From: a virus
Lineage: Duplodnaviria > Caudoviricetes
Direction: 5' to 3' (one strand)
Length of the DNA stretch: 64,000 bases
IMG/VR virus record: IMGVR_UViG_3300035498_000575
Span: 38,417 to 102,416 of that record
A program made the translations under genes and the position numbers. Positions 498 through 62,638 of this stretch are shown here, piece after piece (positions within the stretch are counted from its first letter, which is position 1; each line of letters begins with the position of its first letter). Under the pieces are notes generated by a model. That model made no database searches. It saw only the letters and a list, made by a program, of their open reading frames with translations, and was not told where the DNA came from.

Positions 498-509
498 AAC
501 AATCCTGTA
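498..509 (+). promoter_or_regulatory. AR9-type late promoter AACA-N6-TA
   Basis: AACA-ATCCTG-TA upstream of nrdD. Confidence 0.65.
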
Positions 510-547
510 ATAAGAAATAAATCTATAATATTTATGAGGTGATTAAA

Positions 548-3500
548 ATGGATTTAAGAATAATTAAAAAGAATGGGGAACTTCAAGATTTTGATATGAA
601 TAAAATCATAACAGCTGTCAATAAATCTGCAAATAGAGTGATGGTAGATTTCACAGATGATGATATAAGACAATTGAAAATGAACGTTAGATCTATGTGC
701 GCTGATTACTGTAATACACATGATGATCTAATTCCAATAGAGGTAATGCACAATATCGTTGAAGTTTCTCTCGATAAAGTAAATAAGGATGTAGCGACTT
801 CATACAGAGAATATAGAAATTACAAAACTAGTTTTGTAGAGATATTAAATAATGTCTACAAAAAGGTGCAGTCAATTATGTACATAGGAGACAAAGACAA
901 TGCAAACACTGACAGTGCCCTAGTTTCAACAAGAAGAAGTTTGATCTACAATCAATTGAATAAAGAACTTTATCAAAAGTTCAATATGAGACCTGATGAA
1001 GTCCAAGCATGTAAAGATGGATATATTTACATACATGATATGGTAGCAAGGAGAGATACAATAAATTGCTGCTTATATGATATGGAAAAAGTTTTAACTG
1101 GTGGATTTGAAATGGGTAACGTTTGGTATAACGAACCAAAAACCATAGATACAGCTTTTGATGTTATGGGAGATATCGTTCTATCAGCTGCAGCACAACA
1201 GTATGGAGGATTTACAATTCCTGAAGTTGATAAGATATTAGAGCCATATGCAATAAAAACGTATGAAATGTATCGCGACGAATTTGCAGAATGTAATGGT
1301 TATACTAGCTATGATAGGATGTTGTGCACAATAAAGAGTTTCTTTGGTTCTAGTGAACAGAATAGGATTCGTTCTAGATGTGAAGAATATGCGAAGAAGA
1401 AGTTAAATCGAGATATTGAACAAGGTTTCCAAGGTTGGGAATATAAATTCAATACAGTAGGTTCTTCACGTGGTGATTACCCATTTATATCTATCTCATT
1501 TGGATTATGTGATAGTGAATTTGGTAAGATGATAAACAAGGCATGTTTAAAGGTAAGAATGAATGGACAGGGAAAAAAGGGAAATAAGAAACCGGTTTTA
1601 TTTCCTAAACTTACTTTTTTATATGATCACAATATACATGGAGAAGGTTGTTCGTCAGAAGATGTTTTTGAAGCAGCCATTAATTGCTCACAAAAAGCCA
1701 TGTATCCTGACTACTTATCTTTAACAGGAGAAGGTTACATCCCATCTATGTACAAAAAGTATGGTAAGGTAGTAAGTTTAATGGGTTGCGTGCATGGCGA
1801 CTCTGAAGTAACTATTTCTTCGGCAGAAAATGGGCAAGAAGATATAAAAATTAGTGATTTATGGAATCGCTTAACAGATGATGGGTATAACGTATTAGAA
1901 CAGATTGAAGGTGAAGACAGATTTACATACATCGATTTTAGCGAAGGCGGTGCACAGATAGATATATATGACCAAATGACTGGATATGTACGCGTTAGAA
2001 AGATAATTAAAAATAAAACTAACGAATGGATTTTATTTAAATTCGGCAATGGTGAGCAATTACAATGCACACCAGATCATCCACTCCCAATATTCTATAA
2101 AGGAAGAATAAGGGCAGATGAAGTTTGTATTGGTGATGAGATCCATTGCTATGATGATGTTGAAGATGGTAATTCAACCAGAGTAGTAAGTATCCAGCAC
2201 ATACCTTGTCATATGGAAGATAGTTACGATGTGGAAACTGATACAGATCATTTCACAGTAAATAATATCTGGTCACACAATTGCAGGGCATCACTATCAC
2301 CTTGGTATGAAAGAGGTGGTATGGAACCAGCAGACGATGACGACTATCCAGTTTTTGTTGGTAGGTTCAACATGGGCGCTATCTCTTTAAATCTCCCGTT
2401 GATACTAGCCAAAGCTAGAAAAGAGAATAGAGATTTTTATGAAGTTCTTGAGTTTTATATGACAATGATTAGAAGGATACATTTGAGGACTTATGAATAT
2501 ATTGGTGAAATGAAAGCTAGCACCAACCCACTTGGATTCTGTGAAGGTGGATTCTACGGAGGTCATTTGCAACCAGATGAAAAGATAAAACCTCTTCTAA
2601 AACCTATGACTATGTCATTTGGTATTACTGCATTAAACGAATTACAAAGATTATATAACGGAAAATCACTACATGAAGATGGTGAATTTTCTCTTGAGGT
2701 CATGAAGTGGATTAATAATAAGATAAATGAATACAAACATGAAGATGGTATATTATATGCAGTATATGGATCACCAGCAGAGAGTTTATGCTTCTCAGGT
2801 GACACACTAGCGTGGACAGAAGACGGAAGAATTCCAATTAAAGATCTTAAAGAGGGAACAAGAGTTTTCTCATACGATGAAACTAGTGGAGACACAGTTC
2901 TCAAGCCAATAGTAAGTCAAAAGATGACATCTCCATCCGATAGGACTATGTATGTTCATTTTGAAAATGGAGACTGTATTTTATGTACGTTCTTCCACCC
3001 ATTTGCTGTATTAAACGGCGATGGTACCAGCATAAAGTATAAACCTGCATATCTTTTAACTGAAGGAGATAATGTTGTGACATCTAGTGGTACTGTCAGA
3101 TTTTCAAATTTCTCAAGCATGCTTGAGGATATTCCGGTATATAATATAGAAGTTGAAGACTTACATAATTACTTTGTATGCTCTACCAAGGAATCTGATG
3201 CCTACCTAGTACATAACTGCGGTCTACAAGCTGAGCAATTTAAGAAATTATATGGTGTAATAGAGAATGTCTCAGATAGAGGATATGTATCCAACAGTTT
3301 TCACGATCATGTTACCGAAGACATCACAGCTATAGAAAAACAGAATGACGAAGGTAGATTTTGGGATCTGTTTAATGGTGGTAAGATACAATACTGTCGC
3401 TATCCATTGAATTATAATGCAGAAGCGATGAGGATTATTGTACGTCGTGCTATGGATAAAGGTTTTTATGAGGGCGTTAATATGAGCTTAGCTTATTGTG

Positions 3501-3670
3501 ACGACTGTGGTCATAGTGAGTTGGAAATGGATGTGTGTCCTAAATGTGGTAGCAGGAATTTAACTAAAATAGATAGAATGAATGGATATCTAGCTTATTC
3601 AAGAGTTAAGGGTGATACAAGATTGAATAAAGCTAAGATGGAAGAAATAAAAGATAGAAAAAGCATGTAA
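548..3670 (+). CDS. nrdD: Anaerobic (class III) ribonucleoside-triphosphate reductase with ATP cone and two inteins
   Basis: N-terminal ATP cone (IIKKNG...FDMNKI), YIYIHD, QYGG, FPKL, MG/CR finger-loop Cys, CDDC...CPKC Zn site, RMNGYL glycyl-radical loop. ATG 548 follows GAGGTGA. Confidence 0.95.
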   Translation: MDLRIIKKNGELQDFDMNKIITAVNKSANRVMVDFTDDDIRQLKMNVRSMCADYCNTHDDLIPIEVMHNIVEVSLDKVNKDVATSYREYRNYKTSFVEILNNVYKKVQSIMYIGDKDNANTDSALVSTRRSLIYNQLNKELYQKFNMRPDEVQACKDGYIYIHDMVARRDTINCCLYDMEKVLTGGFEMGNVWYNEPKTIDTAFDVMGDIVLSAAAQQYGGFTIPEVDKILEPYAIKTYEMYRDEFAECNGYTSYDRMLCTIKSFFGSSEQNRIRSRCEEYAKKKLNRDIEQGFQGWEYKFNTVGSSRGDYPFISISFGLCDSEFGKMINKACLKVRMNGQGKKGNKKPVLFPKLTFLYDHNIHGEGCSSEDVFEAAINCSQKAMYPDYLSLTGEGYIPSMYKKYGKVVSLMGCVHGDSEVTISSAENGQEDIKISDLWNRLTDDGYNVLEQIEGEDRFTYIDFSEGGAQIDIYDQMTGYVRVRKIIKNKTNEWILFKFGNGEQLQCTPDHPLPIFYKGRIRADEVCIGDEIHCYDDVEDGNSTRVVSIQHIPCHMEDSYDVETDTDHFTVNNIWSHNCRASLSPWYERGGMEPADDDDYPVFVGRFNMGAISLNLPLILAKARKENRDFYEVLEFYMTMIRRIHLRTYEYIGEMKASTNPLGFCEGGFYGGHLQPDEKIKPLLKPMTMSFGITALNELQRLYNGKSLHEDGEFSLEVMKWINNKINEYKHEDGILYAVYGSPAESLCFSGDTLAWTEDGRIPIKDLKEGTRVFSYDETSGDTVLKPIVSQKMTSPSDRTMYVHFENGDCILCTFFHPFAVLNGDGTSIKYKPAYLLTEGDNVVTSSGTVRFSNFSSMLEDIPVYNIEVEDLHNYFVCSTKESDAYLVHNCGLQAEQFKKLYGVIENVSDRGYVSNSFHDHVTEDITAIEKQNDEGRFWDLFNGGKIQYCRYPLNYNAEAMRIIVRRAMDKGFYEGVNMSLAYCDDCGHSELEMDVCPKCGSRNLTKIDRMNGYLAYSRVKGDTRLNKAKMEEIKDRKSM
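1787..2281 (+). mobile_element. Mini-intein 1 in NrdD (165 aa)
   Basis: Starts CVHGDS, contains block B CTPDHP, ends YDVET...HFTVNNIWSHN/C. Too short to contain a homing endonuclease. Confidence 0.9.
2789..3217 (+). mobile_element. Mini-intein 2 in NrdD (143 aa)
   Basis: Starts CFSGDT, contains CTFFHPF, ends VYNIEVEDLHNYFV...LVHN/C. Confidence 0.9.
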
Positions 3671-3703
3671 TTAAGAAGAAGCCATTATGGCTTCTTCTTA
3701 ATT
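3669..3703. terminator. Bidirectional terminator-like palindrome
   Basis: AATTAAGAAGAAGCCAT-t-ATGGCTTCTTCTTAATT between convergent genes. Confidence 0.75.
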
Positions 3704-3738
3704 TTCTATGATTTGTATATTTCATCGATATATGATTT

Positions 3739-5060: not shown

Positions 5061-5132
5061 TAATATTTTAACAATCAGTAGTTCTGTTGTATTTTTTACA
5101 ATTTATTAATATAAATAAAAGGAGATGATACT

Positions 5133-8100
5133 ATGCCAGAAAAAGTCAATAATGCTGATAACTTGTTAGCCGCAATGGGTAATAATACGTTCAGCTTACA
5201 ACAGACGCATGAGAGTGCTGTGAAAGCGATGCAGAACTCATATGTATATCTATCTAAGCTTCAACGAGCTATTGTGGATTACCATACGCCTACGGAGTAT
5301 AGTAGTTTTGACTCACTATCAATAGATGACAAATATGATGTGGTCATACATGTACCATACAATATTATTCATCCAGATGACAGAAGAAAGTACAGAATTA
5401 GTGAATTTTATGACAAAGATATAACGATGGATGATATAATCAATAATCCTGATATTTTCAGATATTTTCCTGTTGTTATTATTGATGAGCAAGTCGTCTG
5501 TATTAAAAAATATAGATTCACTTTAAATGAGACGTTTGATGTTGTATTAGATATTGACAAGTCCTATAGACTCGACGAGCATAGGGTAAAAGTATTCATA
5601 TTTGACAATTATTATATAAGTGATGATAGGGTTACTAGGAAAACATTCGTCAATAATGGATATAAGTTTAATTCTAGGAATATTCTTAGGAAGTGCCCAA
5701 GTGATTTTAATGGCACAATATTTTTATATTTTCATAATGGGTTTACAGTATTCGGTAGTAACTTATATGCGGTGGATCCTTCATATAAAACAACAGGAAT
5801 GATTGATATATCAGCTGGTATTACTGAAGAAACTCTACATCAAGTTCTTGAGGATTCTACTTTATTTTATGTATATGCTATATTTGTACCTGACTTATAT
5901 AAATCGGAAGTATTCGACTATAAGAATCCATACCTTGTTCTTCCTGATGACTATAGTATGCCTGTGCCTAAGGAGAATATAGTGGTAGTTAGTTACAAAC
6001 CTGAGACAGGTTCTATGATGGAAGTTATTAAACCTACTGAGCATATTTATCCTAATATTTACAAATTTGATTGTGAACCTGATAAATCATATCAAGCTTA
6101 TTATTTCTACAAGGATGACGAGGACAAAATTCTTAAGTTTAATAATAAATTTAAATTCTTCTTTGATTACCTTGAATATAAGTATAGTAGGAGCACGACT
6201 CAGATGCTTTTCAATAATATTATGAATGGAAGCATTGAACTTAGCGATAATATGAGTAATTATTTGGATAAAGTAATCAATTATGTGGATCCTTCGTATG
6301 ATTATACCAATAAGAACTTTGATGAATCAAATTTACTATCATTTGATTATAAAACTGGAAAGTTAAGAGAGTTTATAGATTATGATCCATGGATATTGAA
6401 AGACTACATAATAGATCAAAATAAAGTGGGATATAGAAGATATCTGTACGTGAAAGACATTGACCTAGCATCTAGATACAGGTTAAACACATTCGCGGAG
6501 TCAACCTGTGAAAAGGATAATTTGGTATTTGATGAGCCCAGATATGTTTTCATGTTTAAGAATGATTATCCTAATATACTTCATATAAGATTTTATGTAG
6601 ATGGTATTATATGTCCTATTCCACATTCTGTACTTGCACACGGAATTGAGTATTACTACGTCCCAGCATCTATGTTTAAAGATGACAGTGTTGTAGAGAT
6701 TGAAAGACTAGACCAATACAGATTTAGAGAAAAGTTGAATTGTCAATTAGATGTAGAAGGTAATTATTCTCAGATTATACAATTTCCACAATTCAATAAT
6801 GCAAACCCTACTGTGTTTGATATTTATTTCACTGACGCATATGATAGACGACTCACATATTCTGCATTTAAAGTTGAGTCATTGACTGATGGTGCTAAAT
6901 ATTCTATCAATATCAATGAGCAGTCAATTGATTTCAGTGACAAGAATATGCTTGAGAAAATATCGTTTTTTGATTCAAATGATAACCAATATTTTGTTAA
7001 GAATGGAAAATTAGTTGATAGTGAAGGTAATGTGTATAAGGGTTCTTATGATGTACGAGGAACTACAGAAATAGAGCATATAAAGATACAAAACGTAATC
7101 TTGACTAACACCAATGATCAAGGAATAGAGGGAGATATAACTTTATATGACACATCTGGAGCAGAAACTTCTTTTAATGATATCAAATTTAAGGTTGATG
7201 ACATAGGAGAAGTATTGGGATACAATAATAGTTTCCTATTTTTGAAGAGTGGTGTTAAGGTAACTCTTGTTGGTACTATGTATAAAGATAAAGACGTGTG
7301 GATAAACGTTAACAAGCATTCTAGAGGTTTTAATTTCTTTGTTGAATGTCCGTCTGTTCCTAATTTAGTAATACCGGAGGTTAATATACTTCACAGAAGA
7401 AGAAAAGAATATATGAGAGTATTCTTAAATGGTAAATTACTACATCCAGATAGTTGGATATTTAAGTATGTTAAGAAAAAAGGTTATATCCGAATTGCGT
7501 TGAAGAAAGCGTGTAAAAAGGGTGATGTTGTTAGTGTTGACATGAACGTAAACGCATATCGTATTGAGTATCACCTAACAGAAATACCAGAAGATTATAT
7601 AATTGATGTCAATCATTTCTTAGATAAACCTCTAGCATTAGAATATTATGATATATATGTAAATGGTAGGAAACTTAATGAATCGAATGTTACTATTCTT
7701 ACCCCAACTAAGATGATACTCAGTGGGGTACACTCAAGGAAGGATTTACAAATTATATCTAAGGATAGGGACCCAGAATACTACGGATTTGATGAAAATG
7801 GTTGTACTACTGAACTGGATGAATTCATTGACTCTGTATTACCAGAAGATGATAAAGGAGAATTCTATCAACATTTAGTTAACGAGATTAACCCAAACGC
7901 TGACGGTGACAATATTATTTCTGATGATAGTGAAGAATATTTATTAGAAGACGTAGTTTATAACGAAAGAGACTACAATAGGTGGGCTTTTTACTTCAAT
8001 GAGCTTTCGCCTATCGGTCATCTTAACCCTGATCTTGTGCAGTTCAACTATTTGCGTTTAAAGCAATATTACCCTTATATCAATGAGGATTATAAACGAG

Positions 8101-8210
8101 GAACTTCAAAAAGAACTAGGAAAGCAGTAACTACAGATCCAGACATAGTTTATAATGCTGGTGTACGATTACTTGTCGGCGGAATGGTAGATGTTAATGA
8201 TTTAGTATAA
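5133..8210 (+). CDS. Large putative virion structural (tail/baseplate) protein
   Basis: 1025 aa, beta-rich, with repeated (F/Y)(V/L)(N/D)G(K/R) motifs. AGGAG RBS and near-consensus late promoter TACA-ATTTAT-TA at 5097-5108. Confidence 0.55.
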   Translation: MPEKVNNADNLLAAMGNNTFSLQQTHESAVKAMQNSYVYLSKLQRAIVDYHTPTEYSSFDSLSIDDKYDVVIHVPYNIIHPDDRRKYRISEFYDKDITMDDIINNPDIFRYFPVVIIDEQVVCIKKYRFTLNETFDVVLDIDKSYRLDEHRVKVFIFDNYYISDDRVTRKTFVNNGYKFNSRNILRKCPSDFNGTIFLYFHNGFTVFGSNLYAVDPSYKTTGMIDISAGITEETLHQVLEDSTLFYVYAIFVPDLYKSEVFDYKNPYLVLPDDYSMPVPKENIVVVSYKPETGSMMEVIKPTEHIYPNIYKFDCEPDKSYQAYYFYKDDEDKILKFNNKFKFFFDYLEYKYSRSTTQMLFNNIMNGSIELSDNMSNYLDKVINYVDPSYDYTNKNFDESNLLSFDYKTGKLREFIDYDPWILKDYIIDQNKVGYRRYLYVKDIDLASRYRLNTFAESTCEKDNLVFDEPRYVFMFKNDYPNILHIRFYVDGIICPIPHSVLAHGIEYYYVPASMFKDDSVVEIERLDQYRFREKLNCQLDVEGNYSQIIQFPQFNNANPTVFDIYFTDAYDRRLTYSAFKVESLTDGAKYSININEQSIDFSDKNMLEKISFFDSNDNQYFVKNGKLVDSEGNVYKGSYDVRGTTEIEHIKIQNVILTNTNDQGIEGDITLYDTSGAETSFNDIKFKVDDIGEVLGYNNSFLFLKSGVKVTLVGTMYKDKDVWINVNKHSRGFNFFVECPSVPNLVIPEVNILHRRRKEYMRVFLNGKLLHPDSWIFKYVKKKGYIRIALKKACKKGDVVSVDMNVNAYRIEYHLTEIPEDYIIDVNHFLDKPLALEYYDIYVNGRKLNESNVTILTPTKMILSGVHSRKDLQIISKDRDPEYYGFDENGCTTELDEFIDSVLPEDDKGEFYQHLVNEINPNADGDNIISDDSEEYLLEDVVYNERDYNRWAFYFNELSPIGHLNPDLVQFNYLRLKQYYPYINEDYKRGTSKRTRKAVTTDPDIVYNAGVRLLVGGMVDVNDLV

Positions 8211-12173: not shown

Positions 12174-12590
12174 TTATTCGTTTAGTTGTAAAGATATAGT
12201 TTTTAAGATGATAGCATATACCTCAAGGTCGTAAGGTGGGATTATCCTACAAGCCATTTCACGTTCAAGTGATGTGAATATAGCATCTGCTACCATCATA
12301 CTTTCACCAGTAAACTTACCAAGCAATAATGCCAGTCTTTCACTAGTCTTTATCTTATTGTATGGTAAGTTTGTTATTTTATTATTTTTGAAGTTATTGA
12401 TTATCTCATCGTACTCCTTAATAATACCGGCTTTATACCTTTTTAATTCACGTCTTTTCATCCCATATGTGTCTTTGTCATTCCAAAACTGTCGTTCTAT
12501 ATTCTCAACATCAGATATGAATCTGTTCTTGATTTTAGAACTTTGGTCGTTTTTGTCTTGCTTATTTTTTGAATTAGAAAATAACACCAT
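12174..12590 (-). CDS. Hypothetical protein (early operon)
   Basis: ATG 12590 follows GGAGGT; early motif 46 nt upstream. Confidence 0.7.
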   Translation of the reverse strand: MVLFSNSKNKQDKNDQSSKIKNRFISDVENIERQFWNDKDTYGMKRRELKRYKAGIIKEYDEIINNFKNNKITNLPYNKIKTSERLALLLGKFTGESMMVADAIFTSLEREMACRIIPPYDLEVYAIILKTISLQLNE

Positions 12591-12635
12591 ATTATTTACC
12601 TCCATTTATGGTCTTAGTTTATACGCTTGCATAAA

Positions 12636-12649
12636 TATAATATATAATT
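12636..12649 (-). promoter_or_regulatory. Early-type promoter motif AATTATATATTATA
   Basis: Exact 14-mer upstream of a minus-strand operon. Confidence 0.7.
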
Positions 12650-12742
12650 AAATTTATTCTTTTTAAACTATGAGAAAAACGGTGTGAAATAAATGACATT
12701 ACATTTAAATAACCAAAAAAATATTGAAGGGATGATGCTAAA

Positions 12743-18017: not shown

Positions 18018-18135
18018 ATTTTTATACCTCCATAAAATCTGTGGATGAATAGTTTAGTAATATAAGTTATCCACGGAACTTAAATTACTTTATTGTTTAT
18101 GCGAATTAAAATTCTATTAAACCTTAATTCTCGTT

Positions 18136-18149
18136 TATAATATATAATT
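18136..18149 (-). promoter_or_regulatory. Early-type promoter motif
   Basis: Exact AATTATATATTATA. Confidence 0.65.
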
Positions 18150-18782: not shown

Positions 18783-18947
18783 TTATTTGGATAGACGTTT
18801 ATCTATCTTTTCTTGGTCTATACCTTTTTCTTTAAGTAATGTAACCACTATGGTATCTAACGCTTTATAATTACCGTCAGCAGTCATGTGGTTTTTGACC
18901 GTTTTGAACGCTCTGCGTCCTCTCTCAATGTCATCTTTCTTACTCAT
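18783..18947 (-). CDS. Small basic hypothetical protein (54 aa)
   Basis: ATG 18947 follows GGAGGT; coupled to rnhA. Confidence 0.65.
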   Translation of the reverse strand: MSKKDDIERGRRAFKTVKNHMTADGNYKALDTIVVTLLKEKGIDQEKIDKRLSK

Positions 18948-18991: not shown

Positions 18992-19005
18992 TATAATATA
19001 TAATT
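18992..19005 (-). promoter_or_regulatory. Early-type promoter motif
   Basis: Exact AATTATATATTATA, 45 nt from the ATG. Confidence 0.7.
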
Positions 19006-19047: not shown

Positions 19048-19059
19048 AACAATATATTA
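19048..19059 (+). promoter_or_regulatory. Late promoter AACA-N6-TA
   Basis: AACA-ATATAT-TA upstream of the tape measure gene. Confidence 0.7.
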
Positions 19060-33043: not shown

Positions 33044-33055
33044 AACAATGTATTA
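33044..33055 (+). promoter_or_regulatory. Late promoter AACA-N6-TA
   Basis: AACA-ATGTAT-TA. Confidence 0.7.
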
Positions 33056-37685: not shown

Positions 37686-37697
37686 TAACCAATTGTT
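37686..37697 (-). promoter_or_regulatory. Late promoter AACA-N6-TA
   Basis: AACA-ATTGGT-TA on the minus strand. Confidence 0.65.
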
Positions 37698-38576: not shown

Positions 38577-38590
38577 TATAATATATAATT
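38577..38590 (-). promoter_or_regulatory. Early-type promoter motif
   Basis: Exact AATTATATATTATA. Confidence 0.7.
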
Positions 38591-38616
38591 GTTTATCGGT
38601 TTACAAAATAACTAAT

Positions 38617-40605: not shown

Positions 40606-40617
40606 TAAAAAAATGTT
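40606..40617 (-). promoter_or_regulatory. Late promoter AACA-N6-TA
   Basis: AACA-TTTTTT-TA on the minus strand. Confidence 0.6.
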
Positions 40618-41388: not shown

Positions 41389-41432
41389 AAATTTACCTCC
41401 ATTTTGGTTATAGGTTTATTTTCTACCACAAC

Positions 41433-41446
41433 TATAATATATAACT
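41433..41446 (-). promoter_or_regulatory. Early-type promoter motif (1 mismatch)
   Basis: AGTTATATATTATA, 45 nt from the ATG. Confidence 0.65.
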
Positions 41447-41490
41447 GTTTTTTCTTTTGTAAAAATAATAAAGAAGGATAACATCCTTCT

Positions 41491-41962: not shown

Positions 41963-41974
41963 TATAAAAGTGTT
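41963..41974 (-). promoter_or_regulatory. Late promoter AACA-N6-TA
   Basis: AACA-CTTTTA-TA on the minus strand. Confidence 0.65.
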
Positions 41975-41997: not shown

Positions 41998-42009
41998 AAC
42001 AATTTTATA
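41998..42009 (+). promoter_or_regulatory. Late promoter AACA-N6-TA
   Basis: AACA-ATTTTA-TA. Confidence 0.65.
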
Positions 42010-43134: not shown

Positions 43135-43146
43135 AACAATATAATA
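43135..43146 (+). promoter_or_regulatory. Late promoter AACA-N6-TA
   Basis: AACA-ATATAA-TA. Confidence 0.65.
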
Positions 43147-47609: not shown

Positions 47610-47621
47610 TAATTAATTGTT
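47610..47621 (-). promoter_or_regulatory. Late promoter AACA-N6-TA
   Basis: AACA-ATTAAT-TA on the minus strand. Confidence 0.65.
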
Positions 47622-47646
47622 TGTATGGAGCTGTTTTGGAACCCAG

Positions 47647-47658
47647 AACATACCAGTA
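47647..47658 (+). promoter_or_regulatory. Late promoter AACA-N6-TA
   Basis: AACA-TACCAG-TA. Confidence 0.65.
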
Positions 47659-49197: not shown

Positions 49198-49209
49198 AAC
49201 AATTTCCTA
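49198..49209 (+). promoter_or_regulatory. Late promoter AACA-N6-TA
   Basis: AACA-ATTTCC-TA. Confidence 0.6.
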
Positions 49210-49226: not shown

Positions 49227-50399
49227 ATGACTTATACAGGATTATTAATAGCTGATCAGCATTTTGGAGCAGGTGATACTGATCATTTAGTATTAGAACA
49301 CATTTCATCATTATTAGAGTATATGGACAGTCTCAAAAAAATAGATTACATGATAATACTAGGTGATTATTTTGATCATAAGATGTACTTGAATGATTCT
49401 GATGCTTGGGCGGCTTTTAAAATTATGGAGGAAATAATTTCACGAATTAAAAAGAATGAAGCTAAATTACGAATAGTATATGGAACAGCTTCACATGAGA
49501 ATAACCAGTATAACATATTTAACACGTTATTCAGGGACACAACATTAGATGTACGTGTAATCAAAACGGTAGAGGAAGAACAACTATTTGAGGGTCTGAA
49601 AGTTTTATATCTTCCTGAAGAATATATATACAATAAGAACGAATATTATAATGATTATTTTACTAAATTAGGAGAATATGATTATGTATTTGGACACGGT
49701 ATTATACAAGAAGTTATGACAGACGCTTGTCGACACACTTCCAAAGAAACCAAACGTGCAAAAGTTCCAGTATTCTCTTCAGCTGAATTGAAGCGACTTG
49801 TAAAGGGCGAAGTATACTTTGGTCATTATCATATTAACTCAACAGTAGATGATATAATACATTATGTTGGTTCGTTCTCTAGATGGAAGTTTGGGGAAAC
49901 GGACGATAAGGGTTTTTATATAGTTTCAAAAGATGACGATGGTTTCCATAATAAATTTATAATTAATAGTTATGCTGAGAAGTATGATGATATATATTTT
50001 TACGAGAATGATCCCATATATTCCAATGAGGATGAGCTTGTAAAAAGGTTAAGCAATATATCTGACCAAATAGGCACAGGTATATATGATAACGTCAAAT
50101 TAAGGTTTCAAATACCTGAAAATTATGATGGTACACAATTTCTTATTACGTTTTTAAAAAGTAAGTATGAATATAATAGTAAAGTTAAGATAGAAGTCAC
50201 TCAATTGAAAGAGACTAAAAAAAGAAAACAAGAAAAAGAAACGCTTGAAGAAAATAGTAAATACAATATCATTTTTGACAAATCAATTCCAATAGAAGAA
50301 AAAATAAAATCATATATAGAAATGGAATTTGATAAAAAAATCGAGACAGCAGATATCTGTGAATGCCTCGATATAACAAATGTATCTAGAGAGTGCTAG
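49227..50399 (+). CDS. SbcD/Mre11-like metallophosphoesterase nuclease
   Basis: IADQHFG, LGDYFD, GTASHE, FGHG, FGHYH, YVGSF. Confidence 0.88.
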   Translation: MTYTGLLIADQHFGAGDTDHLVLEHISSLLEYMDSLKKIDYMIILGDYFDHKMYLNDSDAWAAFKIMEEIISRIKKNEAKLRIVYGTASHENNQYNIFNTLFRDTTLDVRVIKTVEEEQLFEGLKVLYLPEEYIYNKNEYYNDYFTKLGEYDYVFGHGIIQEVMTDACRHTSKETKRAKVPVFSSAELKRLVKGEVYFGHYHINSTVDDIIHYVGSFSRWKFGETDDKGFYIVSKDDDGFHNKFIINSYAEKYDDIYFYENDPIYSNEDELVKRLSNISDQIGTGIYDNVKLRFQIPENYDGTQFLITFLKSKYEYNSKVKIEVTQLKETKKRKQEKETLEENSKYNIIFDKSIPIEEKIKSYIEMEFDKKIETADICECLDITNVSREC

Positions 50400-51493: not shown

Positions 51494-51757
51494 TTAAAGT
51501 ATTCCACGACCTCTTCCACGACTTTGCTGTACGTAGGAAGGAGCCTTAGCCATAGATTTAGATGTTAGTGCTTTTACGAGCACTGCTACCTGAATATCTT
51601 CTGGTAATGCTTTAATCATGTTGTAAAGGTCTGTCTCAGTAACGTTTGCGCCTGACGCTAGGTACTCAGAAATAGCCTTTGCGATATTTGCGATACTCTG
51701 TTGCTGTTGTACTTGGTATTGCTTTACCATGCTTGCGATTTCGTTGTAACTTGCCAT
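51494..51757 (-). CDS. Small early protein with an RGRGRG tail
   Basis: GGAGGT RBS; own promoter and terminator. Confidence 0.7.
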   Translation of the reverse strand: MASYNEIASMVKQYQVQQQQSIANIAKAISEYLASGANVTETDLYNMIKALPEDIQVAVLVKALTSKSMAKAPSYVQQSRGRGRGIL

Positions 51758-51804
51758 AATTATTTACCTCCATTTTTGGTCGTAAGTTTATTTTCTTCCA
51801 CAAT

Positions 51805-51818
51805 TATAATATATAATT
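51805..51818 (-). promoter_or_regulatory. Early-type promoter motif
   Basis: Exact AATTATATATTATA, 48 nt from the ATG. Confidence 0.7.
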
Positions 51819-51837
51819 GTTTTTAAGCTTTGTAATA

Positions 51838-55438: not shown

Positions 55439-56305
55439 TTAATCTTCGTCTTCATCTTCGTCATCGATATCATCTATATCGTCATAATCCTTCTCAGGTT
55501 CAACGGTATACTGATTACGCATAGCTTTGTTAAATTCAGCATACGCACGTTCGTCTGACTTGACAGTCAACTTCATTCCACGTTCAGGTTCATGGGAAAT
55601 AGTGAAGCCGTTATCGCCTGTTGTAGTAACGGTTGTGGTAAAGACACCTTGGAAGTTCAATTTGTAATAACCGCCATCATCTTCAAGTGCACGTTCCTTA
55701 CAATACTGGATTAAAGCATCATAAGTAACTACCCATAAAGCTATTGCTAGATGAGCATATGGAAGATGTAGATGATAGAACCTCTCAAGTTTTCTCAATA
55801 ACCTAGCTTCAACGAGACACATCAATTCTGGATTTGGTATAGCTTCAGTTAGTGTCGCTACTTTGTCAGCAGAGTTTGCATTAGGGTTTGCTTCTAAAAG
55901 CTGTTTTTCATCATCCTTATTGCAAACCTGAGCTTCATCCGTATCCAAGTCTGGGGTTAATAATGAAACCATTATTGGTGTTATATTACCAATAGTCTCA
56001 GCATCATACTCTTTAACAGATAGAGAGTTGTTTCTTGCAAACATTGCAACTCTTCCTGCTAGAGTTATCATTGGAATATCATGTGATTCGGAAACAAGAA
56101 TCATCGCTTCATTCATAAGCTCTACGAACACAACAGCTAATGTGTCAGGGTCAATAACTACTTGGTAGTCTCTTTCAAGATTTCCCTTAGCTATATCTAG
56201 TACAGTATTTACCGCTGCACGTTCTTCCACATTGTCATATGCATTGTATCTGTAGTTATTCATATTCTTGCATATTTCCAATCCATTACAAACAATTCCA
56301 CTCAT
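55439..56305 (-). CDS. Hypothetical early protein with an acidic tail
   Basis: AGGAGG RBS; early motif upstream. Confidence 0.7.
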   Translation of the reverse strand: MSGIVCNGLEICKNMNNYRYNAYDNVEERAAVNTVLDIAKGNLERDYQVVIDPDTLAVVFVELMNEAMILVSESHDIPMITLAGRVAMFARNNSLSVKEYDAETIGNITPIMVSLLTPDLDTDEAQVCNKDDEKQLLEANPNANSADKVATLTEAIPNPELMCLVEARLLRKLERFYHLHLPYAHLAIALWVVTYDALIQYCKERALEDDGGYYKLNFQGVFTTTVTTTGDNGFTISHEPERGMKLTVKSDERAYAEFNKAMRNQYTVEPEKDYDDIDDIDDEDEDED

Positions 56306-56354: not shown

Positions 56355-56368
56355 TATAATATATAATT
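56355..56368 (-). promoter_or_regulatory. Early-type promoter motif
   Basis: Exact AATTATATATTATA, 50 nt from the ATG. Confidence 0.7.
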
Positions 56369-56427: not shown

Positions 56428-56898
56428 TTAATTATTCTCACTTTGCTTTTCTTCTTGAGTCTCGACCTTATCAGAAACACTGTCATCTCTTCTTGATATC
56501 TTCTTAGTAGACTGTGAGCGCTTCTTATCGATAAATAAATTCTTTATGCCACGCTTAACAATTGATTCTATATATGGTTCAGACTTTGCCTGTGTATTAT
56601 CACTGCAATTAAAGAATAGTAGTTGGAAGTTATATGCGGATGAATCTACAATATGAATTGCATTGTTACCACCGCAATTTGTTAGGTATATTGAATATAC
56701 CTGCTTCTTTCTAGGCATGTCTTCTCTTGTTAGCTTGATATTCCAAGTTAGTGCTCCAGTAGACTTCTTCTTATCGTCGAAGTACACCTTAGAGTTAACT
56801 GTGCCCTGAGCATCTTCAGATGCATTGTATGTATCAACCACCTTATTAACAATTTCCTTAATTGTTTCGTTGTAATTGTACTTTTCAGTTTTCATCAT
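56428..56898 (-). CDS. Hypothetical protein
   Basis: ATG follows GGAGGT. Confidence 0.7.
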   Translation of the reverse strand: MMKTEKYNYNETIKEIVNKVVDTYNASEDAQGTVNSKVYFDDKKKSTGALTWNIKLTREDMPRKKQVYSIYLTNCGGNNAIHIVDSSAYNFQLLFFNCSDNTQAKSEPYIESIVKRGIKNLFIDKKRSQSTKKISRRDDSVSDKVETQEEKQSENN

Positions 56899-57015: not shown

Positions 57016-57027
57016 TAAATAATTGTT
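57016..57027 (-). promoter_or_regulatory. Late promoter AACA-N6-TA
   Basis: AACA-ATTATT-TA on the minus strand. Confidence 0.55.
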
Positions 57028-57042: not shown

Positions 57043-59178
57043 TTACATATTCATTAGTATCTCCTTGAATTCATCCAGAGTTACAATTCGAACGCCATGC
57101 TTTCTAGCTTTAGTTATTTTGCTACTATGCACAGCTTCACTTGGAACAACGAGATACGTTGTGTCTTTATTCACATTGTCAACAACTAAACCTTCTTTAG
57201 CTTCGATAGTTTTCTCTGTGTCATTGTCTCTGATTCTACTGAAGCATACAGTGAACTTAGGTTCATAACTTTGAACTTGGACGTCTACGATTCTAAATTC
57301 TCCTAGAGATACCAATGATTCAAAATGTTCTATTAAATCTAGGTTTTCTTTCAATCCATGGATGATATTCTCTGCCATTATAGAACCAATGCCCTCAATA
57401 CAAATTAGCATATTGTATAAAGCTGTTGTATTACCATCAACCATATTGTCTATTATTGTATAATAAGGTATCACACTGAGTATCTTCCTTGCAGTCTTTC
57501 TACTTAAACCCTCAATACCTAAAGAACCTAGGAATTCGTCAGAATACATCTCTCTACTCTCATCGATAGATTTGAGTATATTTGACCAACGTTTTTTCCC
57601 AAATCCTGCAGTATGACAGAACTTCTTATTTTTGTATAGAGTATACAAATCGGATATGTCATGTATGAGGTCCATGTTTATGAAAGTTCTCAATGTGGCG
57701 TATGATAAACCCTTTATTCTATTCTTAGACGCAAAGTTTACCAATTTTCCTAATATTTTACTTTCACAAGATGGGTTACTACATTGTAGTTCGTCAGAAC
57801 CTTTTTTGTTACACAAGGGCTTACCGCATGTTGGACATAAATTAGGTATAGCAAACGGGATATCATCAGATTTAGTACACTTGTCGTTTACTGTTAGATA
57901 AGGTATTATGTCGTATTTTATTATCACTTCTGAATTGGGTGATAAATTTAATGATTTCATTCTGCCTATGCTTCCTAGAGACACCCTAGATATTGTATTG
58001 CCTTTTAGTTTAACGGGTTCCACGATTGCTACAGGAGCAATGTTTCCGAAATCGCCCATCTGGAATATAACATTAGTTATCCTCGTCTTTGCTTCAACTT
58101 CTGTAAATTTATAAGCTACTTCGTATTTGTTCTTATCATCTTTACGACCTAAAACATTACGAATCTCCGCATCAACGATGTATATTACAGCACCGTCACA
58201 CCTGTACTCAGACATCAAAGATTCTAGACTATCAGCAAACCTTTTAATCCCTATTCTGTCATCCATCGTTGTAGATAAATAAGGGTACTCACTAAAGACT
58301 TCATCACAAAGAATCTGTTGTTCTTCTGAACCCACTCTTAGAGGAACCGGATGTAACAACTTTGATTTCTCCTTGTCGTATTCATTTGAGTTTAATATAG
58401 CTGAAGCAATAGACCTTGTATTCTTATAATTAGTTCCATATTTCTCATTAAAAGAATCTAAATCTGAGTTCTTAACCATAATCTCTGTCTTTACAGCGTA
58501 CTCATCACCAAAATCGACAACAGGAATATATTTGTATTTCTTAAATGTATTTAATACATTCTGTGCTGTGTTGTCTTTCGTGTATCCTCTAGTTAAAGCA
58601 CGACTAGCTTCATAACTGTCACTACGCATTTCAAATATACAGGAAACACCGTCGAACTTTGGGAACACATATATCTCAACTTTTGATAAATCGATTCTTG
58701 CCCCGCAATTATCATAGTATAAGTTTTCTGCACTGGATATCCACTGGTCTAAACTTCTCCTAGAATTATTAACTGATTCTTCACCAACTCCTAAGCTGTA
58801 AACCTTATCCAGTGTACCCCTGAATGATGGAAACTTATGATGACATGTCTCAACAATAGTTGATGGTGATACTGAGATTATATCATCTCCTCCTCCATTC
58901 ACCATTATCTCATATAACTTATCATAATCACTATCAGAGATTCCTGTGTCAGAACCTGAATAGTTGTATATGAATTGAGCTATTTTGATAATCTCAGAGA
59001 TTATCTGAATATCATATTCTGTTATAGGTCTGTTAATGTACTCAGAATTGACATACCTATTAATGGTTTTTATAACCTCTTTTGATTGTAAAAACTCTAC
59101 AGCTTCTCTTATGGATACATTATTATCTGTAAGATTGCTCATGAGTTCTTCACATTTAGATATAAGATCGTAAGTCAT
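57043..59178 (-). CDS. ligA: NAD-dependent DNA ligase
   Basis: ISDSDYDKL, KFDG, LTRG, DGAV, AYKF, CPTC..C..C Zn finger, HhH motifs, C-terminal BRCT. Confidence 0.95.
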   Translation of the reverse strand: MTYDLISKCEELMSNLTDNNVSIREAVEFLQSKEVIKTINRYVNSEYINRPITEYDIQIISEIIKIAQFIYNYSGSDTGISDSDYDKLYEIMVNGGGDDIISVSPSTIVETCHHKFPSFRGTLDKVYSLGVGEESVNNSRRSLDQWISSAENLYYDNCGARIDLSKVEIYVFPKFDGVSCIFEMRSDSYEASRALTRGYTKDNTAQNVLNTFKKYKYIPVVDFGDEYAVKTEIMVKNSDLDSFNEKYGTNYKNTRSIASAILNSNEYDKEKSKLLHPVPLRVGSEEQQILCDEVFSEYPYLSTTMDDRIGIKRFADSLESLMSEYRCDGAVIYIVDAEIRNVLGRKDDKNKYEVAYKFTEVEAKTRITNVIFQMGDFGNIAPVAIVEPVKLKGNTISRVSLGSIGRMKSLNLSPNSEVIIKYDIIPYLTVNDKCTKSDDIPFAIPNLCPTCGKPLCNKKGSDELQCSNPSCESKILGKLVNFASKNRIKGLSYATLRTFINMDLIHDISDLYTLYKNKKFCHTAGFGKKRWSNILKSIDESREMYSDEFLGSLGIEGLSRKTARKILSVIPYYTIIDNMVDGNTTALYNMLICIEGIGSIMAENIIHGLKENLDLIEHFESLVSLGEFRIVDVQVQSYEPKFTVCFSRIRDNDTEKTIEAKEGLVVDNVNKDTTYLVVPSEAVHSSKITKARKHGVRIVTLDEFKEILMNM

Positions 59179-59225: not shown

Positions 59226-59239
59226 TATAATATATAATT
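59226..59239 (-). promoter_or_regulatory. Early-type promoter motif
   Basis: Exact AATTATATATTATA, 48 nt from the ATG. Confidence 0.7.
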
Positions 59240-59243: not shown

Positions 59244-59639
59244 TTACAATATACCTTCCATTATCATTATCTCGTTTATCATGTCAACGAATAACGAAGG
59301 ATGGTATAAACGTAGACTACTGATGTCCTTGAACTCAGTTACTGAGCACATATAGTTTAACTCCAAAATCATAAACCATAATTCGGCCGAACCGTATATA
59401 TTCTTGGCTATTAGTCTTGGTTTATACTTATAATACAAAACCTCATCGTCTGTCAAATTAGCAGTCACAACTGATCCAGCTAGGTAATCCTTATACTTAT
59501 TAATTAACGAACCGTATGGAACACGAATAGTATCACCATTAGAATCCGTGATTATAGCTTTCTCATGTAAGTTTTTGTACGTCTTTTCTTGTTTTCTATA
59601 AGCATCAATTAAATCTTGTATAGTAACTGGCAATGCCAT
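59244..59639 (-). CDS. Baseplate wedge protein, LysM-like (T4 gp53-type)
   Basis: KPRLIAKNIYGSAELWFMILELN. Confidence 0.7.
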   Translation of the reverse strand: MALPVTIQDLIDAYRKQEKTYKNLHEKAIITDSNGDTIRVPYGSLINKYKDYLAGSVVTANLTDDEVLYYKYKPRLIAKNIYGSAELWFMILELNYMCSVTEFKDISSLRLYHPSLFVDMINEIMIMEGIL

Positions 59640-59669: not shown

Positions 59670-59681
59670 TATAGGTCTGTT
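59670..59681 (-). promoter_or_regulatory. Late promoter AACA-N6-TA
   Basis: AACA-GACCTA-TA on the minus strand. Confidence 0.65.
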
Positions 59682-59701: not shown

Positions 59702-59733
59702 AACTTAGAGAGATGAATTCATCTCTCTAAGTT
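59702..59733 (-). terminator. Perfect 32-bp palindrome, terminator
   Basis: AACTTAGAGAGATGAA|TTCATCTCTCTAAGTT. Confidence 0.75.
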
Positions 59734-60043
59734 AACTTATATTTATTCTTGTATAGTCATTAATTCTCTTTGTATCAGTACTATAATTATTTTTGTGCAG
59801 ATTTTCTGATATAGTATCAATACATTCATTGTCCGCTTGTATAACAGCAACAAGCTTATCATCTTCAACCTCAAATTTAACTGTCGCTTTGCCCTCATCT
59901 ACTGATTTTGATACAGCACGATAACTATTAACAAATTCACTATAATGATTATTAAGGACATGCGATAGATCTTGCGGCTGCATTTCTCTGCAATAGTCAA
60001 CCATACCTTTATGATCGACTTCGTTATGATTTCTTCGTCCCAT
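59732..60043 (-). CDS. Hypothetical protein
   Basis: ATG 60043 follows AAGGA; alternative start at 60061. Confidence 0.65.
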   Translation of the reverse strand: MGRRNHNEVDHKGMVDYCREMQPQDLSHVLNNHYSEFVNSYRAVSKSVDEGKATVKFEVEDDKLVAVIQADNECIDTISENLHKNNYSTDTKRINDYTRINIS

Positions 60044-60068: not shown

Positions 60069-60103
60069 TACTAAGGTGTTTTGTTTAGTAAAACACCTTA
60101 GTA
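60069..60103 (-). terminator. Hairpin terminator with an embedded late promoter (60069-60080)
   Basis: TACTAAGGTGTTTT-gtttagt-AAAACACCTTAGTA; each arm reads AACA-CCTTAG-TA. Confidence 0.65.
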
Positions 60104-60110
60104 TGTATTA

Positions 60111-60317
60111 TCAAGCTTTAGCTATCGCCTCTTGTTCTTGTAATAATTGCTCAACTCTAGCAGCTCTAATTTCACTCAATATTTTAAACGGAATCTCATT
60201 CATTATCTCATTATAAGATAACTGTCCTTTAAATATAGCCAGTGTTTCGTTTATAAACTGAGCGTATTTTCGATGTTGATTTCGGAAATCACTAAGAGTT
60301 GATATGCTGTAAAAACC
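60111..60317 (-). CDS. Unannotated -1 frame extension (GT-like) of the upstream tail chaperone
   Basis: Frame is open from 60329 to 60111 with no RBS-linked start; G_GTT_TTT at 60317-60311; encodes ...FKGQLSYNEIMNEIPFKILSEIRAARVEQLL... Confidence 0.6.
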   Translation of the reverse strand, partial: GFYSISTLSDFRNQHRKYAQFINETLAIFKGQLSYNEIMNEIPFKILSEIRAARVEQLLQEQEAIAKA

Positions 60318-61924
60318 AATGTGTTGATATCAACAGGCACACGCTTTGTAACTCTTCCGCAGTGTGGGCAGACTACATCCTTAAATGCAAAGCTGGATGC
60401 GTATTTTTCTGTGGTATCATTAAGGATAGAACCTAGAATCTTGATCTCTCTTGGCTTTATCTCATAAAGCGCATTTACTATGTTAGTACCATCTGTATAC
60501 TTAGCATATTCACCATTTTCATTAGGTATAGATACACTTCTTACAATAGATAGAAGTGATAGAGATAACTTCTTGGTATGATTAACATCATCCTCAAATA
60601 CCTCCTTGCCTTCATCGCTTAGCAACACATCTAGTATCTGATATAAATAATCGTATGCGGATGCGATACCTACCTCAACAATGAATCCACTATCAGGTAG
60701 CTTAATAGCCTTGTATGTTTGTACTGAGCTACTTTCAAATAGTTCTTGATACTCAGATGGCTTACAATCGGCTATCTTCTCAGTGTAGTCTAGGAAACTT
60801 TGTCCGCATCTGTCAAATTCAATTAAAGAACGTGGTGAATACTTGTGATCAAATGATGCCTTAATTAGCTCACCATTAGCGTCTCTACTAGCCTTTGGAC
60901 AATTAGGATTACCACAAGATAATTCTATTGTATCTTCTTCAGGGAACGTAGAAACTATGAGTCCATATACAGCCATATCCATATCAATATATGCAAACTT
61001 CTTTAGGAAGTCATCGAAACTCTCAAACTTACCAATATTAGCATTTGATAGCTTATTATAAATAACTGAAAGCTTCTTTCTAACTTGGTCGAAAGTTATA
61101 TTATCAGGATCTAGTGCAAGATCACCGAGTTCTCCATATGATAGACCATTCATCTTAGCTCTAAATCTAGATGCTGGGAAGCAAATAGGTGTCGATGCTG
61201 AAGATAGATGATATGACTCTATTTGATTGATGAACGTGTTTGAAGGTGATGGCTTAATATATCTTGTTGTCTGAAGTTCCTTCGTATCAACCTCAGTAAT
61301 CTTAATAGCCTTAGCCTTTGTGATTCTTTCTCTTTCTTCATCCGTGAATTCTATGGACTTACCAAGACCAGTCTTATCAATTAGGATATTAACAAGTTCT
61401 TCAGTACTTCTTTCTGTACTACCGTTATCACTTTCTTCACTCGCCTGTTCCTTCTTAATATTTTCTTGGAAAGCCTTCTCATCAAAATTTTCATCCTTTA
61501 TGATAATCTTATCTGCAATAGGATTATGCGTTTGAACAGTACCAGTTTCGGCAATCTCTTCAATAGCAGTCATTAATTGCATATTTTCAATATCGTTATT
61601 TACCTTAGGTGCGATTATCTTGCTTGCTATATCAGTCATCTTATCTAGACTTTCTGAATACTTAGCAACATCCTCACGCCTTTGGTCAGTATCAGTCATG
61701 CTTCTTAATGGCTCAGGTTCATTCTTTAGATCCTTATTATCAACTATGAGACCTTTTTGCTGTGTTTCCTTATCCATAGCTGCCTTATCTAAAGCAGATA
61801 ATTGAATATTACTTGACTCCTCGTCATTATTATTCTCTGGCTTTTGATTTAGTAGTGACATTAGATCAATACTTTCATCCTTCTTAATTTCTCCTCCATT
61901 AGGATTTGTATTCGTATTTGACAT
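60251..61924 (-). CDS. Tail/baseplate-hub assembly chaperone (T4 gp26-like) with acidic N-terminal extension
   Basis: IELSCGNPNC and VVCPHCG Zn motifs, LPDSGF, KKFAYIDMD; lies among baseplate genes. Confidence 0.55.
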   Translation of the reverse strand: MSNTNTNPNGGEIKKDESIDLMSLLNQKPENNNDEESSNIQLSALDKAAMDKETQQKGLIVDNKDLKNEPEPLRSMTDTDQRREDVAKYSESLDKMTDIASKIIAPKVNNDIENMQLMTAIEEIAETGTVQTHNPIADKIIIKDENFDEKAFQENIKKEQASEESDNGSTERSTEELVNILIDKTGLGKSIEFTDEERERITKAKAIKITEVDTKELQTTRYIKPSPSNTFINQIESYHLSSASTPICFPASRFRAKMNGLSYGELGDLALDPDNITFDQVRKKLSVIYNKLSNANIGKFESFDDFLKKFAYIDMDMAVYGLIVSTFPEEDTIELSCGNPNCPKASRDANGELIKASFDHKYSPRSLIEFDRCGQSFLDYTEKIADCKPSEYQELFESSSVQTYKAIKLPDSGFIVEVGIASAYDYLYQILDVLLSDEGKEVFEDDVNHTKKLSLSLLSIVRSVSIPNENGEYAKYTDGTNIVNALYEIKPREIKILGSILNDTTEKYASSFAFKDVVCPHCGRVTKRVPVDINTLVFTAYQLLVISEINIENTLSL

Positions 61925-62206
61925 AAAATAATCAATCCTTTCTTTTTAATAATAAATACTAATTACTATAAATGTTTGGTGATAATTTTTAATCCCATTA
62001 CATCGTTTTAGCTATATTAAAAACTTTTTTGTATACTATTATCGTATTATAGCTATAACTCTCATCCGGCTTGCCCGAAGGGCTTACCCCTGCCGTCAGG
62101 CTTACCTTTCCTCCTACTTACCTACTGTATATATAATATTATAAATATGTAAAAACAAAAATAAAAATTGATATTGATATTTCAAAATATAGCAAATCCC
62201 TATATC

Positions 62207-62218
62207 AACAATATAGTA
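62207..62218 (+). promoter_or_regulatory. Late promoter AACA-N6-TA
   Basis: AACA-ATATAG-TA; supports ATG 62234 as the true start. Confidence 0.65.
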
Positions 62219-62233
62219 AAAGGGTGTGATGAT

Positions 62234-62623
62234 ATGATATCCAGTACCACGATTCCCAACTATATGATTGAAAGTGAAGAATATGCTTACTCTCTTGAAG
62301 ATTTAACTGAATTTTATGGTGGGATGAAAATGAAAATATATGTACCTAAATTAATGCCCGATGTAGACATTAAGAAGATGAATAAGATAGAAACTAAAAG
62401 GATATATTGTAACTCCATGTATATCAATACCAAAAAAGAAAGTCGCCCATCTTGTGGAAGTGATATATCTTTTCAATATTATATAACTGGTATAGTTAAT
62501 TATAATTCTAACTATAAACATCTTTTAAATGAAAATGGTGTTATACCTAAGGGGACAAGATTTAAGTGTACGTTTATGAACGGTGATATAAATAAGTGCT
62601 TCATAGATACAGATATTAATTAA
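62234..62623 (+). CDS. Putative baseplate spike-associated OB-fold protein
   Basis: KIYVPKLMP...IPKGTRFKCTFMNGDINK resembles the gp5/gpV OB-fold motif. Confidence 0.45.
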   Translation: MISSTTIPNYMIESEEYAYSLEDLTEFYGGMKMKIYVPKLMPDVDIKKMNKIETKRIYCNSMYINTKKESRPSCGSDISFQYYITGIVNYNSNYKHLLNENGVIPKGTRFKCTFMNGDINKCFIDTDIN

Positions 62624-62626
62624 TGA

Positions 62627-62638
62627 AACAGTTATTTA
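62627..62638 (+). promoter_or_regulatory. Late promoter AACA-N6-TA
   Basis: AACA-GTTATT-TA. Confidence 0.65.

Follow-up and report, generated by a model that had tools for sequence, protein, structure and literature searches.

The question raised by the stretch of DNA analysed here is which polymerase reads the sequence AACA-N6-TA that recurs in front of its genes, and whether this sequence tells anything about the base composition of the DNA. The stretch, called the window below, comprises 64,000 nucleotides (nt), bases 38417-102416 of the linear IMG/VR contig IMGVR_UViG_3300035498_000575 (102,416 bp), which is a fragment of an uncultured jumbo phage of gut anaerobes. Late promoters of phage AR9 have the consensus 5'-A(-11)ACA-N6-T-A/G(+1)-3', whose template-strand form, 3'-UUGU-N6-AU, is recognised by the non-virion RNA polymerase (RNAP) holoenzyme of that phage, an enzyme of five subunits (PMC9209446, PMC7598289). 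The original prediction, made from the window alone, had pointed to this likeness, and the match is real, backed by AR9-type RNAP genes within the window. The AACA-N6-TA regulon very probably represents the promoters of an AR9-type non-virion polymerase. The explanation as a whole, namely AR9-type late and early promoters with the late motif most likely read on thymine or C5-substituted DNA, is considered likely.

The 16 exact AACA-N6-TA sites that had been placed upstream of genes were all found, each at its position and on its strand. In 15 of them a start codon, preceded by a Shine-Dalgarno sequence, follows 16-39 nt after the A of TA; the exception is the site at 57016, which is 118 nt upstream of its start codon. 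Across the whole window the motif is not enriched (73 copies against 82±9 in shuffles), and the enrichment is therefore positional. It was measured in the 100 nt before the starts of the 82 genes given by a simple gene call on the whole contig. There 35 sense copies were counted, and shuffling these regions with dinucleotides preserved gave 7.3±2.6 (maximum 17 in 2000, z = 10.7), so that the expected excess over shuffled controls upstream of genes was borne out; for the window genes alone the values were 20 and 3.9±1.9. Other spacings gave few sense copies upstream (N5 = 4, N7 = 2 and N8 = 5, versus N6 = 35), and 12 antisense AACA-N6-TA copies were present, many of them within shared divergent intergenic regions. 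Non-coding DNA contained 5.9 sites per kb and coding DNA 0.74, an eightfold difference in density. The final dinucleotide was also specific, with TA in 35 cases versus TT in 1, TG in 3 and TC in 2. When all patterns of a 4-mer, a gap of 0-12 and a 2-mer were ranked (about 29,000), AACA-N6-TA came fourth (P about 1e-19), behind three Shine-Dalgarno patterns, and thus tops the patterns that are not ribosome-binding sites. In the contig the spacing between the A of TA and the start codon is typically 16-57 nt, and the extended consensus is A-AACA-A-T-T-N3-TA-A. An origin of the motif in chance or AT-richness was excluded by the spacing, strand and shuffle controls. AR9 itself, put through the identical upstream test as a positive control, gave 78 copies against 16 expected, with rank 4, which means that the test recovers a known regulon. 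The late-type sites of the window are as follows.

498..509, plus strand: late-type promoter AACAATCCTGTA, upstream of the NrdD gene (548-3670), 39 nt from TA to ATG
18086..18097, minus strand: late-type promoter, 69 nt upstream of 17526-18017
19048..19059, plus strand: late-type promoter, upstream of the tape-measure-like giant gene 19092-24284 (AR9 g204 homologue)
33044..33055, plus strand: late-type promoter, upstream of the virion protein gene 33084-34805 (AR9 g205 homologue)
37686..37697, minus strand: late-type promoter, upstream of 37232-37654, with betaC next in the same direction
40606..40617, minus strand: late-type promoter, upstream of 39804-40574 (AR9 g233-like endonuclease)
41963..41974, minus strand: late-type promoter, upstream of 41491-41937, divergent partner of 41998
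41998..42009, plus strand: late-type promoter, upstream of 42037-43098
43135..43146, plus strand: late-type promoter, upstream of the UvsX-like recombinase gene 43171-44394
47610..47635, minus strand: two tandem late-type sites (47610 and 47624), upstream of 46491-47576
47647..47658, plus strand: late-type promoter, upstream of 47691-49175
49198..49209, plus strand: late-type promoter, upstream of the SbcD/Mre11-like gene 49227-50399
57016..57027, minus strand: late-type site, 118 nt upstream of the open reading frame (ORF) 56428-56898
59670..59681, minus strand: late-type promoter, upstream of 59244-59639
60069..60080, minus strand: ambiguous motif match, upstream of 59732-60043, in the 3' arm of a 14-bp hairpin (60069-60103)
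62207..62218, plus strand: late-type promoter, upstream of 62234-62623
62627..62638, plus strand: late-type promoter, upstream of 62672-63448
5097..5108, plus strand: TACA-N6-TA variant, upstream of 5133-8210
12700..12711, plus strand: TACA-N6-TA variant, upstream of the virion RNAP beta gene
63498..63509, plus strand: TACA-N6-TA variant, upstream of 63548-64000

Five sites, all on the minus strand, had been absent from the first list (18086, 38582, 41438, 47624 and 51810). The one-mismatch copies claimed there were also recovered, as TACA at 5097, 12700 and 63498, GACA at 9035 and AACC at 5035 (minus strand). The TACA variants stand at the proper distance before three more genes, including that for virion RNAP beta, and are apparently tolerated. 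The site at 60069 is doubtful as a promoter, since it forms an arm of a perfect 14-bp hairpin. This inverted repeat at 60069-60103 (TACTAAGGTGTTTT ... AAAACACCTTAGTA) has an AACA-N6-TA match on each strand and is probably a terminator-like hairpin after the gene 60251-61924, instead of or besides a promoter.

The genes for the polymerases that would read such promoters were sought with local TBLASTN against the whole AR9 genome, and three RNAP subunits were found in the window.

12743-16924, plus strand: virion RNAP beta, 1393 amino acids (aa), AR9 g189 homologue
34848-37190, minus strand: C-terminal subunit of non-virion RNAP beta (betaC), 780 aa, AR9 gp089 homologue, 30% identity
53642-55363, minus strand: N-terminal subunit of non-virion RNAP beta (betaN), 573 aa, AR9 gp105 homologue, 30% identity

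Over all three, identity to g189, gp089 and gp105 was 30-40%. The best database relatives of both beta proteins belong to AR9/PBS1, the Staphylococcus S6 group, Listeria phage LPJP1 and Yersinia phage phiR1-37, with phiKZ-like phages far behind. No pieces of beta' were found within the 102-kb fragment; both were found in the complete relative G001 (IMGVR_UViG_3300011980_000002).

It was considered whether the motif might be no polymerase promoter, and act instead at the RNA level in the 5' leader, as a processing or translation element, or serve as a site for a host sigma factor. The position of the sense sites, 16-70 nt before start codons, would also suit a leader element. This is highly improbable, however, as both core and spacing are identical to a promoter that was mapped by differential RNA sequencing and solved structurally in a homologous polymerase system, and the motif is kept across relatives whose proteins are only 30-40% identical. 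It bears no resemblance to a -35/-10 sigma-70 promoter, and it occurs in divergent pairs within short intergenic regions, such as 41963 and 41998.

A second motif, TATATATTAT, was found in 18 exact copies in the contig. The window holds 10 of them, against 2.0±1.4 expected, all on the minus strand, and for most copies the distance to the downstream gene is 35-90 nt. The early promoters in the AR9 annotation, AAATATATATTAT, which are used by the virion RNAP, have this 10-mer as their core. Five copies are fused with AACA into a composite, AACA(A/G)TTATATATTAT. The following sites are of this early or composite type.

12637..12646, minus strand: early-type TATATATTAT, upstream of the operon 12174-12590 and following genes
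18137..18146, minus strand: early-type TATATATTAT, 129 nt upstream of 17526-18017
18993..19002, minus strand: early-type promoter, upstream of 18783-18947 and the RNase H gene 18160-18771
38578..38593, minus strand: composite AACAATTATATATTAT, early-type TATATATTAT (38578-38587) overlapping AACA-N6-TA, upstream of 37759-38511
41434..41449, minus strand: composite early and late site with TATATATTAT at 41434-41443, upstream of 40663-41388
51806..51821, minus strand: composite early and late site with TATATATTAT at 51806-51815, upstream of 51494-51757
56356..56365, minus strand: early-type promoter, upstream of the operon 55439-56305 and then betaN
59227..59236, minus strand: early-type promoter, upstream of the NAD-dependent ligase gene 57043-59178

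The copy at 38578 heads the run of genes leading to betaC, which also has the late sites 38582 and 37686. The early motif thus precedes the operons of the non-virion polymerase, which supports an AR9-type two-polymerase programme, and the phage is taken to run such a programme. The 10-mer core, found before the operons for ligase, RNase H and the subunits of the non-virion RNAP, is identical to that of AR9. Its upstream flank differs, with (c/a)A(a/g)T here and AAA in AR9, and the merging of five copies with AACA is a further difference. The composites, with both promoter types, recall the continuously expressed class of AR9 genes, in which both types are likewise combined, and some genes here too have early and late sites. 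The composite together with a leader of about 70 nt is repeated with 87% identity before unrelated small genes (41380-41450 and 51750-51822, minus strand), with a weaker copy at 12590-12650, the common sequence being AACA(A/G)TTATATATTATA(A/G)TTGTGG.AGAAAATAAAC...TGGAGGTAAAT.

In the mechanism proposed, the injected virion polymerase would recognise TATATATTAT as its early promoter, from which the operons encoding the non-virion polymerase are transcribed. AACA-N6-TA would serve as the late and 'continuous'-class promoter and be read by the phage's own AR9-type multisubunit non-virion RNAP, with a presumed transcription start at the A of TA, located 10 nt past AACA. The motif would be recognised by a homologue of AR9 gp226, expected in the missing part of the genome, on DNA with thymine or at least a C5-substituted base, through a remodelled helix 2.1bis pocket and not through the uracil-only pocket of AR9.

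The closest known system is that of the AR9/PBS1 late promoters (gp270, gp154, gp105, gp089 and gp226; PDB 7S01, 7UM0, 7UM1). Their core and position relative to genes are identical to those found here, betaN and betaC are homologous with about 30% identity, and a full-length gp226 homologue with the identical fold exists in relatives of this phage. In contrast to AR9/PBS1, this phage lies in a sister clade outside that of the phages with deoxyuridine (dU) DNA, the members of its clade encode ThyA, ThyX or dUTPase, the helix 2.1bis signature with Val206 is not conserved in the clade, and Lys375 of betaN is not conserved here. The consensus is also slightly longer here (A at -12, A-T-T at -7 to -5 and A at +2), and gp226 and beta' are not on this fragment. 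With phiKZ, in which the non-virion RNAP contains gp68, the split beta/beta' polymerase and the sigma-like fifth subunit are common features, and its thymine DNA would be another likeness on the reading proposed for this phage; a modelled gp226 homologue of the clade matches gp68 too (8QUE_B, E 6e-6). The late promoter of phiKZ, TATG at the start site, is unlike AACA-N6-TA, however, and its betaC is only about 20% identical.

Whether the motif implies uracil was approached through the relatives of the phage. A betaC alignment scan of IMG/VR gave 48 loci. Maximum-likelihood and FastTree trees of betaC were built, one of them with 40 taxa. Two sister clades were obtained. Clade B consists of AR9, S6, LPJP1, phiR1-37 and several uncultured genomes. 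Clade A, with a Shimodaira-Hasegawa (SH)-like support of 98, contains this phage (G000) with G001, G003 and G006 in a subclade of 100% support, and in addition G002, G004, G005, G007, G008, G023 and G025. In one tree this phage and G001 were grouped at 100/100 support as sister to AR9, S6, LPJP1 and phiR1-37, and in the 40-taxon tree the phage was nested in clade A. Outgroups from Serratia and Ralstonia phages were placed outside both clades. By RNAP phylogeny the phage is not a member of the dU-phage clade. G009, G010, G011 and G020 have a split betaC and were left out of the tree; on the basis of identity and gp226 signature they were classed with the clade-A type. Gene content was then compared between the two types by searches of whole records.

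Clade-A type, 14 genomes: ThyA or ThyX in 13/14, dUTPase in 5/14 (including G003), dCMP deaminase in 4/14
AR9 type, 11 genomes: ThyA or ThyX in 0/11, dUTPase in 2/11, dCMP deaminase in 7/11

G003 is the sole clade-A-type genome without a thymidylate synthase, and it has a dUTPase. The ThyA proteins of G002, G004 and G006 score above the TIGR03284 equivalog cut-off and the ThyX of G001 above that of TIGR02170; eight members of the clade use ThyX. Four clade-A genomes with a thymidylate synthase were fetched whole, and in each the motif was enriched upstream of genes in an N6-specific manner.

G004: 64 AACA-N6-TA copies observed upstream, 10.8 expected, rank 3 of 9411 patterns
G002: 48 observed, 11.5 expected
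G006: 35 observed, 10.8 expected
G001: 22 observed, 6.8 expected

Since phages that make dTMP and hydrolyse dUTP use the motif, the motif alone cannot indicate uracil DNA. Outside the core, the sites of clade A hold 2.0-5.0 bits of information versus 1.5 in AR9, mainly as A at +2 and a run of A before AACA, and those of G001 add an upstream ACC element. This extra information could compensate for a lost uracil cue, with a small effect.

The uracil requirement of AR9 comes from a pocket formed by helix 2.1bis of gp226 (Val206 and Ile207) and by Arg363 and Lys375 of betaN. The gp226 mutant V206G accepts thymine, and Val206 is invariant among dU-phage homologues, which was confirmed in seven sequences of the dU clade. 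In betaN of this phage the stacking residue Arg363 is kept and Lys375 is not, and the segment is closer to that of G001 than to that of AR9. A gene of the gp226 family occurs in 20/20 of the relatives that are at least 90% complete, and the family forms 335 clusters at 50% identity in a library of 1.84 billion proteins. The clade-A gp226 profile matches AR9 gp226 (7S01_A) over nearly the full length with E 5.5e-55, and for the AlphaFold model of the G001 homologue (predicted local distance difference test score, pLDDT, 87.7) the best structural match was 7S01_A, with phiKZ gp68 next. Two other searches were less productive: a single-protein scan of viral contigs for clade-A gp226 relatives returned only G001 itself, and a word-indexed homologue search with a mixed gp226 alignment returned mainly AR9-like proteins. 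Helix 2.1bis of the AR9 type has the signature T-x-Y-S-D-x-V-I-W. It is absent from clade A, which has N-x-x-[IM]-[WFY]-x-Q-R-E instead, and position 206 is hypervariable there (A, T, Q, L, P, I, M, K or V).

The original prediction had left open whether the phage contains uracil or its polymerase reads the motif without it. Of these alternatives the second is favoured by the position in a sister clade, the presence of thyA, thyX or dut genes in that clade, the use of the motif by its members and the loss of the Val206 signature; the first was left unsupported. By phylogenetic bracketing, the DNA of this phage quite probably contains thymine, or else another C5-substituted pyrimidine.

Several points weigh against this reading and in favour of deoxyuridine in place of thymidine, with AACA-N6-TA read in a uracil-dependent manner as in AR9. 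The core motif is identical to that of AR9, and all of the cultured phages nearest to this one in RNAP similarity have dU DNA. The branch is long, and identity of the polymerase subunits to those of any relative is only 31-44%. The 102-kb fragment carries no ThyA, ThyX or dUTPase, and it is likewise without gp226, beta', dCMP deaminase and Ugi, so that the case for thymine depends on the relatives only. Two syntenic slots also lack the gene seen in relatives. The position of the G001 dUTPase, between the ligase gene and the betaN operon, is occupied exactly by an ORFan (56428-56898, minus strand, 156 aa). Comparison with Pfam and with G001, G002, G004, G006 and AR9 gave no match for this ORF, in front of which an AACA-N6-TA site of its own lies at 57016. 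The interval that holds ThyA in G002 and G004 contains a holin gene, a guanylate-kinase-like gene and genes of unknown function here. Moreover, G025 (L100) and the near-identical L043 and L051 have Val at position 206 (HYSNNSVIW), yet G025 encodes ThyA; residue 206 alone is therefore no predictor of base chemistry, and the G025 group shows the highest betaC identity to this phage (40%).

Uracil DNA is nevertheless unlikely here. The phage lies in the sister clade outside the dU clade, and each large genome of its clade that was examined has ThyA, ThyX or dUTPase, with those tested using the motif. The fragment itself gave no match to the AR9 set of dCMP deaminase, Ugi and dNMP nucleotidase (homologues of g221, g104 and g151) or to PF00383, and no credible match in the contig was obtained for the AR9 P-loop kinase, Nudix and glycosylase proteins. 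Absences from the fragment weigh little, since the essential beta' genes are off it too, and they show only that the relevant part of the genome is off-contig. This applies also to gp226, which was not found in the contig by BLASTP and TBLASTN with the AR9 protein, by a seven-sequence hidden Markov model on six-frame ORFs, by an alignment search or by TBLASTN with clade-A sequences; the alignment search is unreliable, as it also missed the true G001 homologue recovered by TBLASTN. The empty slots are weak evidence as well, since in G001 and G006, which are closer relatives, the thymidylate synthase is encoded elsewhere, beside genes that are off this fragment or at its 5' end.

A further alternative is that the DNA contains a C5-modified thymidine derivative, made for example from 5-hydroxymethyldeoxyuridine (5-hmdU), and that the promoter is read on such a base. 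Phage enzymes of the ThyA family can be dUMP hydroxymethylases, and the hypervariable residue 206 of the sigma-like subunit in the clade would fit this possibility. It is rated as still less likely than uracil: the ThyX used by eight members of the clade is known only as a thymidylate synthase, the ThyA proteins score as equivalog thymidylate synthases (that of G004 also passes NF002495), and no modification genes were seen in the window.

With thymine as the preferred base, it is plausible, and somewhat favoured, that the uracil dependence of AACA-N6-TA is a derived speciality of the AR9 clade and that the sister clade, this phage included, reads the motif on thymine DNA with a remodelled -10 pocket; this clade is large and consists mostly of uncultured jumbo phages from gut and environmental sources. 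Uracil-dependent recognition of the template strand in AR9 has been described as avoiding transcription of host DNA, and the literature searched treats promoter recognition of the AR9 type for dU phages only (PMC9209446, PMC7598289, PMC13282480). If the proposal is true, the occurrence of this promoter and both polymerases in a broad sister clade with thymidylate synthases separates the promoter from the base chemistry, and specificity against host DNA must have a source other than uracil. The sigma-like subunits of clade A would then be natural counterparts of the engineered gp226 V206G, and they offer natural variants for studying how U and T are discriminated in the -10 pocket. A metagenomic phage should not be classed as having uracil DNA on the strength of AACA-N6-TA alone. 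What the panel of relatives adds is the two-clade picture, the split in gene content and the helix 2.1bis signatures; the gain from the window itself is modest, namely one more, incompletely assembled member of the clade.

Genome-wide counts of AACA-N6-TA were also compared with those at other spacings. This contig has 113 copies versus 101-130, with no depletion. G001 has 139, rarer than at other spacings (170-297) yet enriched upstream of genes, which hints at selection against spurious promoters inside genes. AR9 has 274 versus 234-372, with no clear depletion.

The contig is about 42% complete according to CheckV, with 58% of the genome missing, and the whole genome would be roughly 240 kb. 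The GC content is 32-40%. No close DNA relatives were found when 25 kb was compared with a phage collection by megablast. Further AR9 matches are the tape measure, UvsX, SbcD, NAD ligase, RNase H and gyrase A/B. The first gene of the window bears on the host.

548-3670, plus strand: anaerobic ribonucleotide reductase NrdD with an intein

Gut Lachnospiraceae and other Clostridia are the source of the nearest cellular NrdD proteins (57-62% identity). This agrees with an anaerobic host among the Firmicutes, probably a member of the Lachnospiraceae or another of the Clostridia. Two long contigs from metagenome-assembled genomes with a 60-62% identical NrdD were tried as closer jumbo phage relatives and rejected as bacterial, having only cellular rpoB-like matches. 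The Hint/intein insertion in NrdD lies at about residues 746-941, and some of the cellular NrdD proteins also look intein-bearing, judged by match length.

Two minor observations concern other genes. A guanylate-kinase-like P-loop protein is encoded at contig positions 33246-33929 (L008:14246-14929; PF00625, 33.7 bits), and AR9 has one too (g238). The 1730-aa tape-measure-like ORF at 19092-24284 overlaps a 2930-aa ORF at 24205-32997 by 80 nt (24205-24284); a convincing ribosome-binding site or start codon is lacking, and thus a frameshift fusion or translational coupling is possible.

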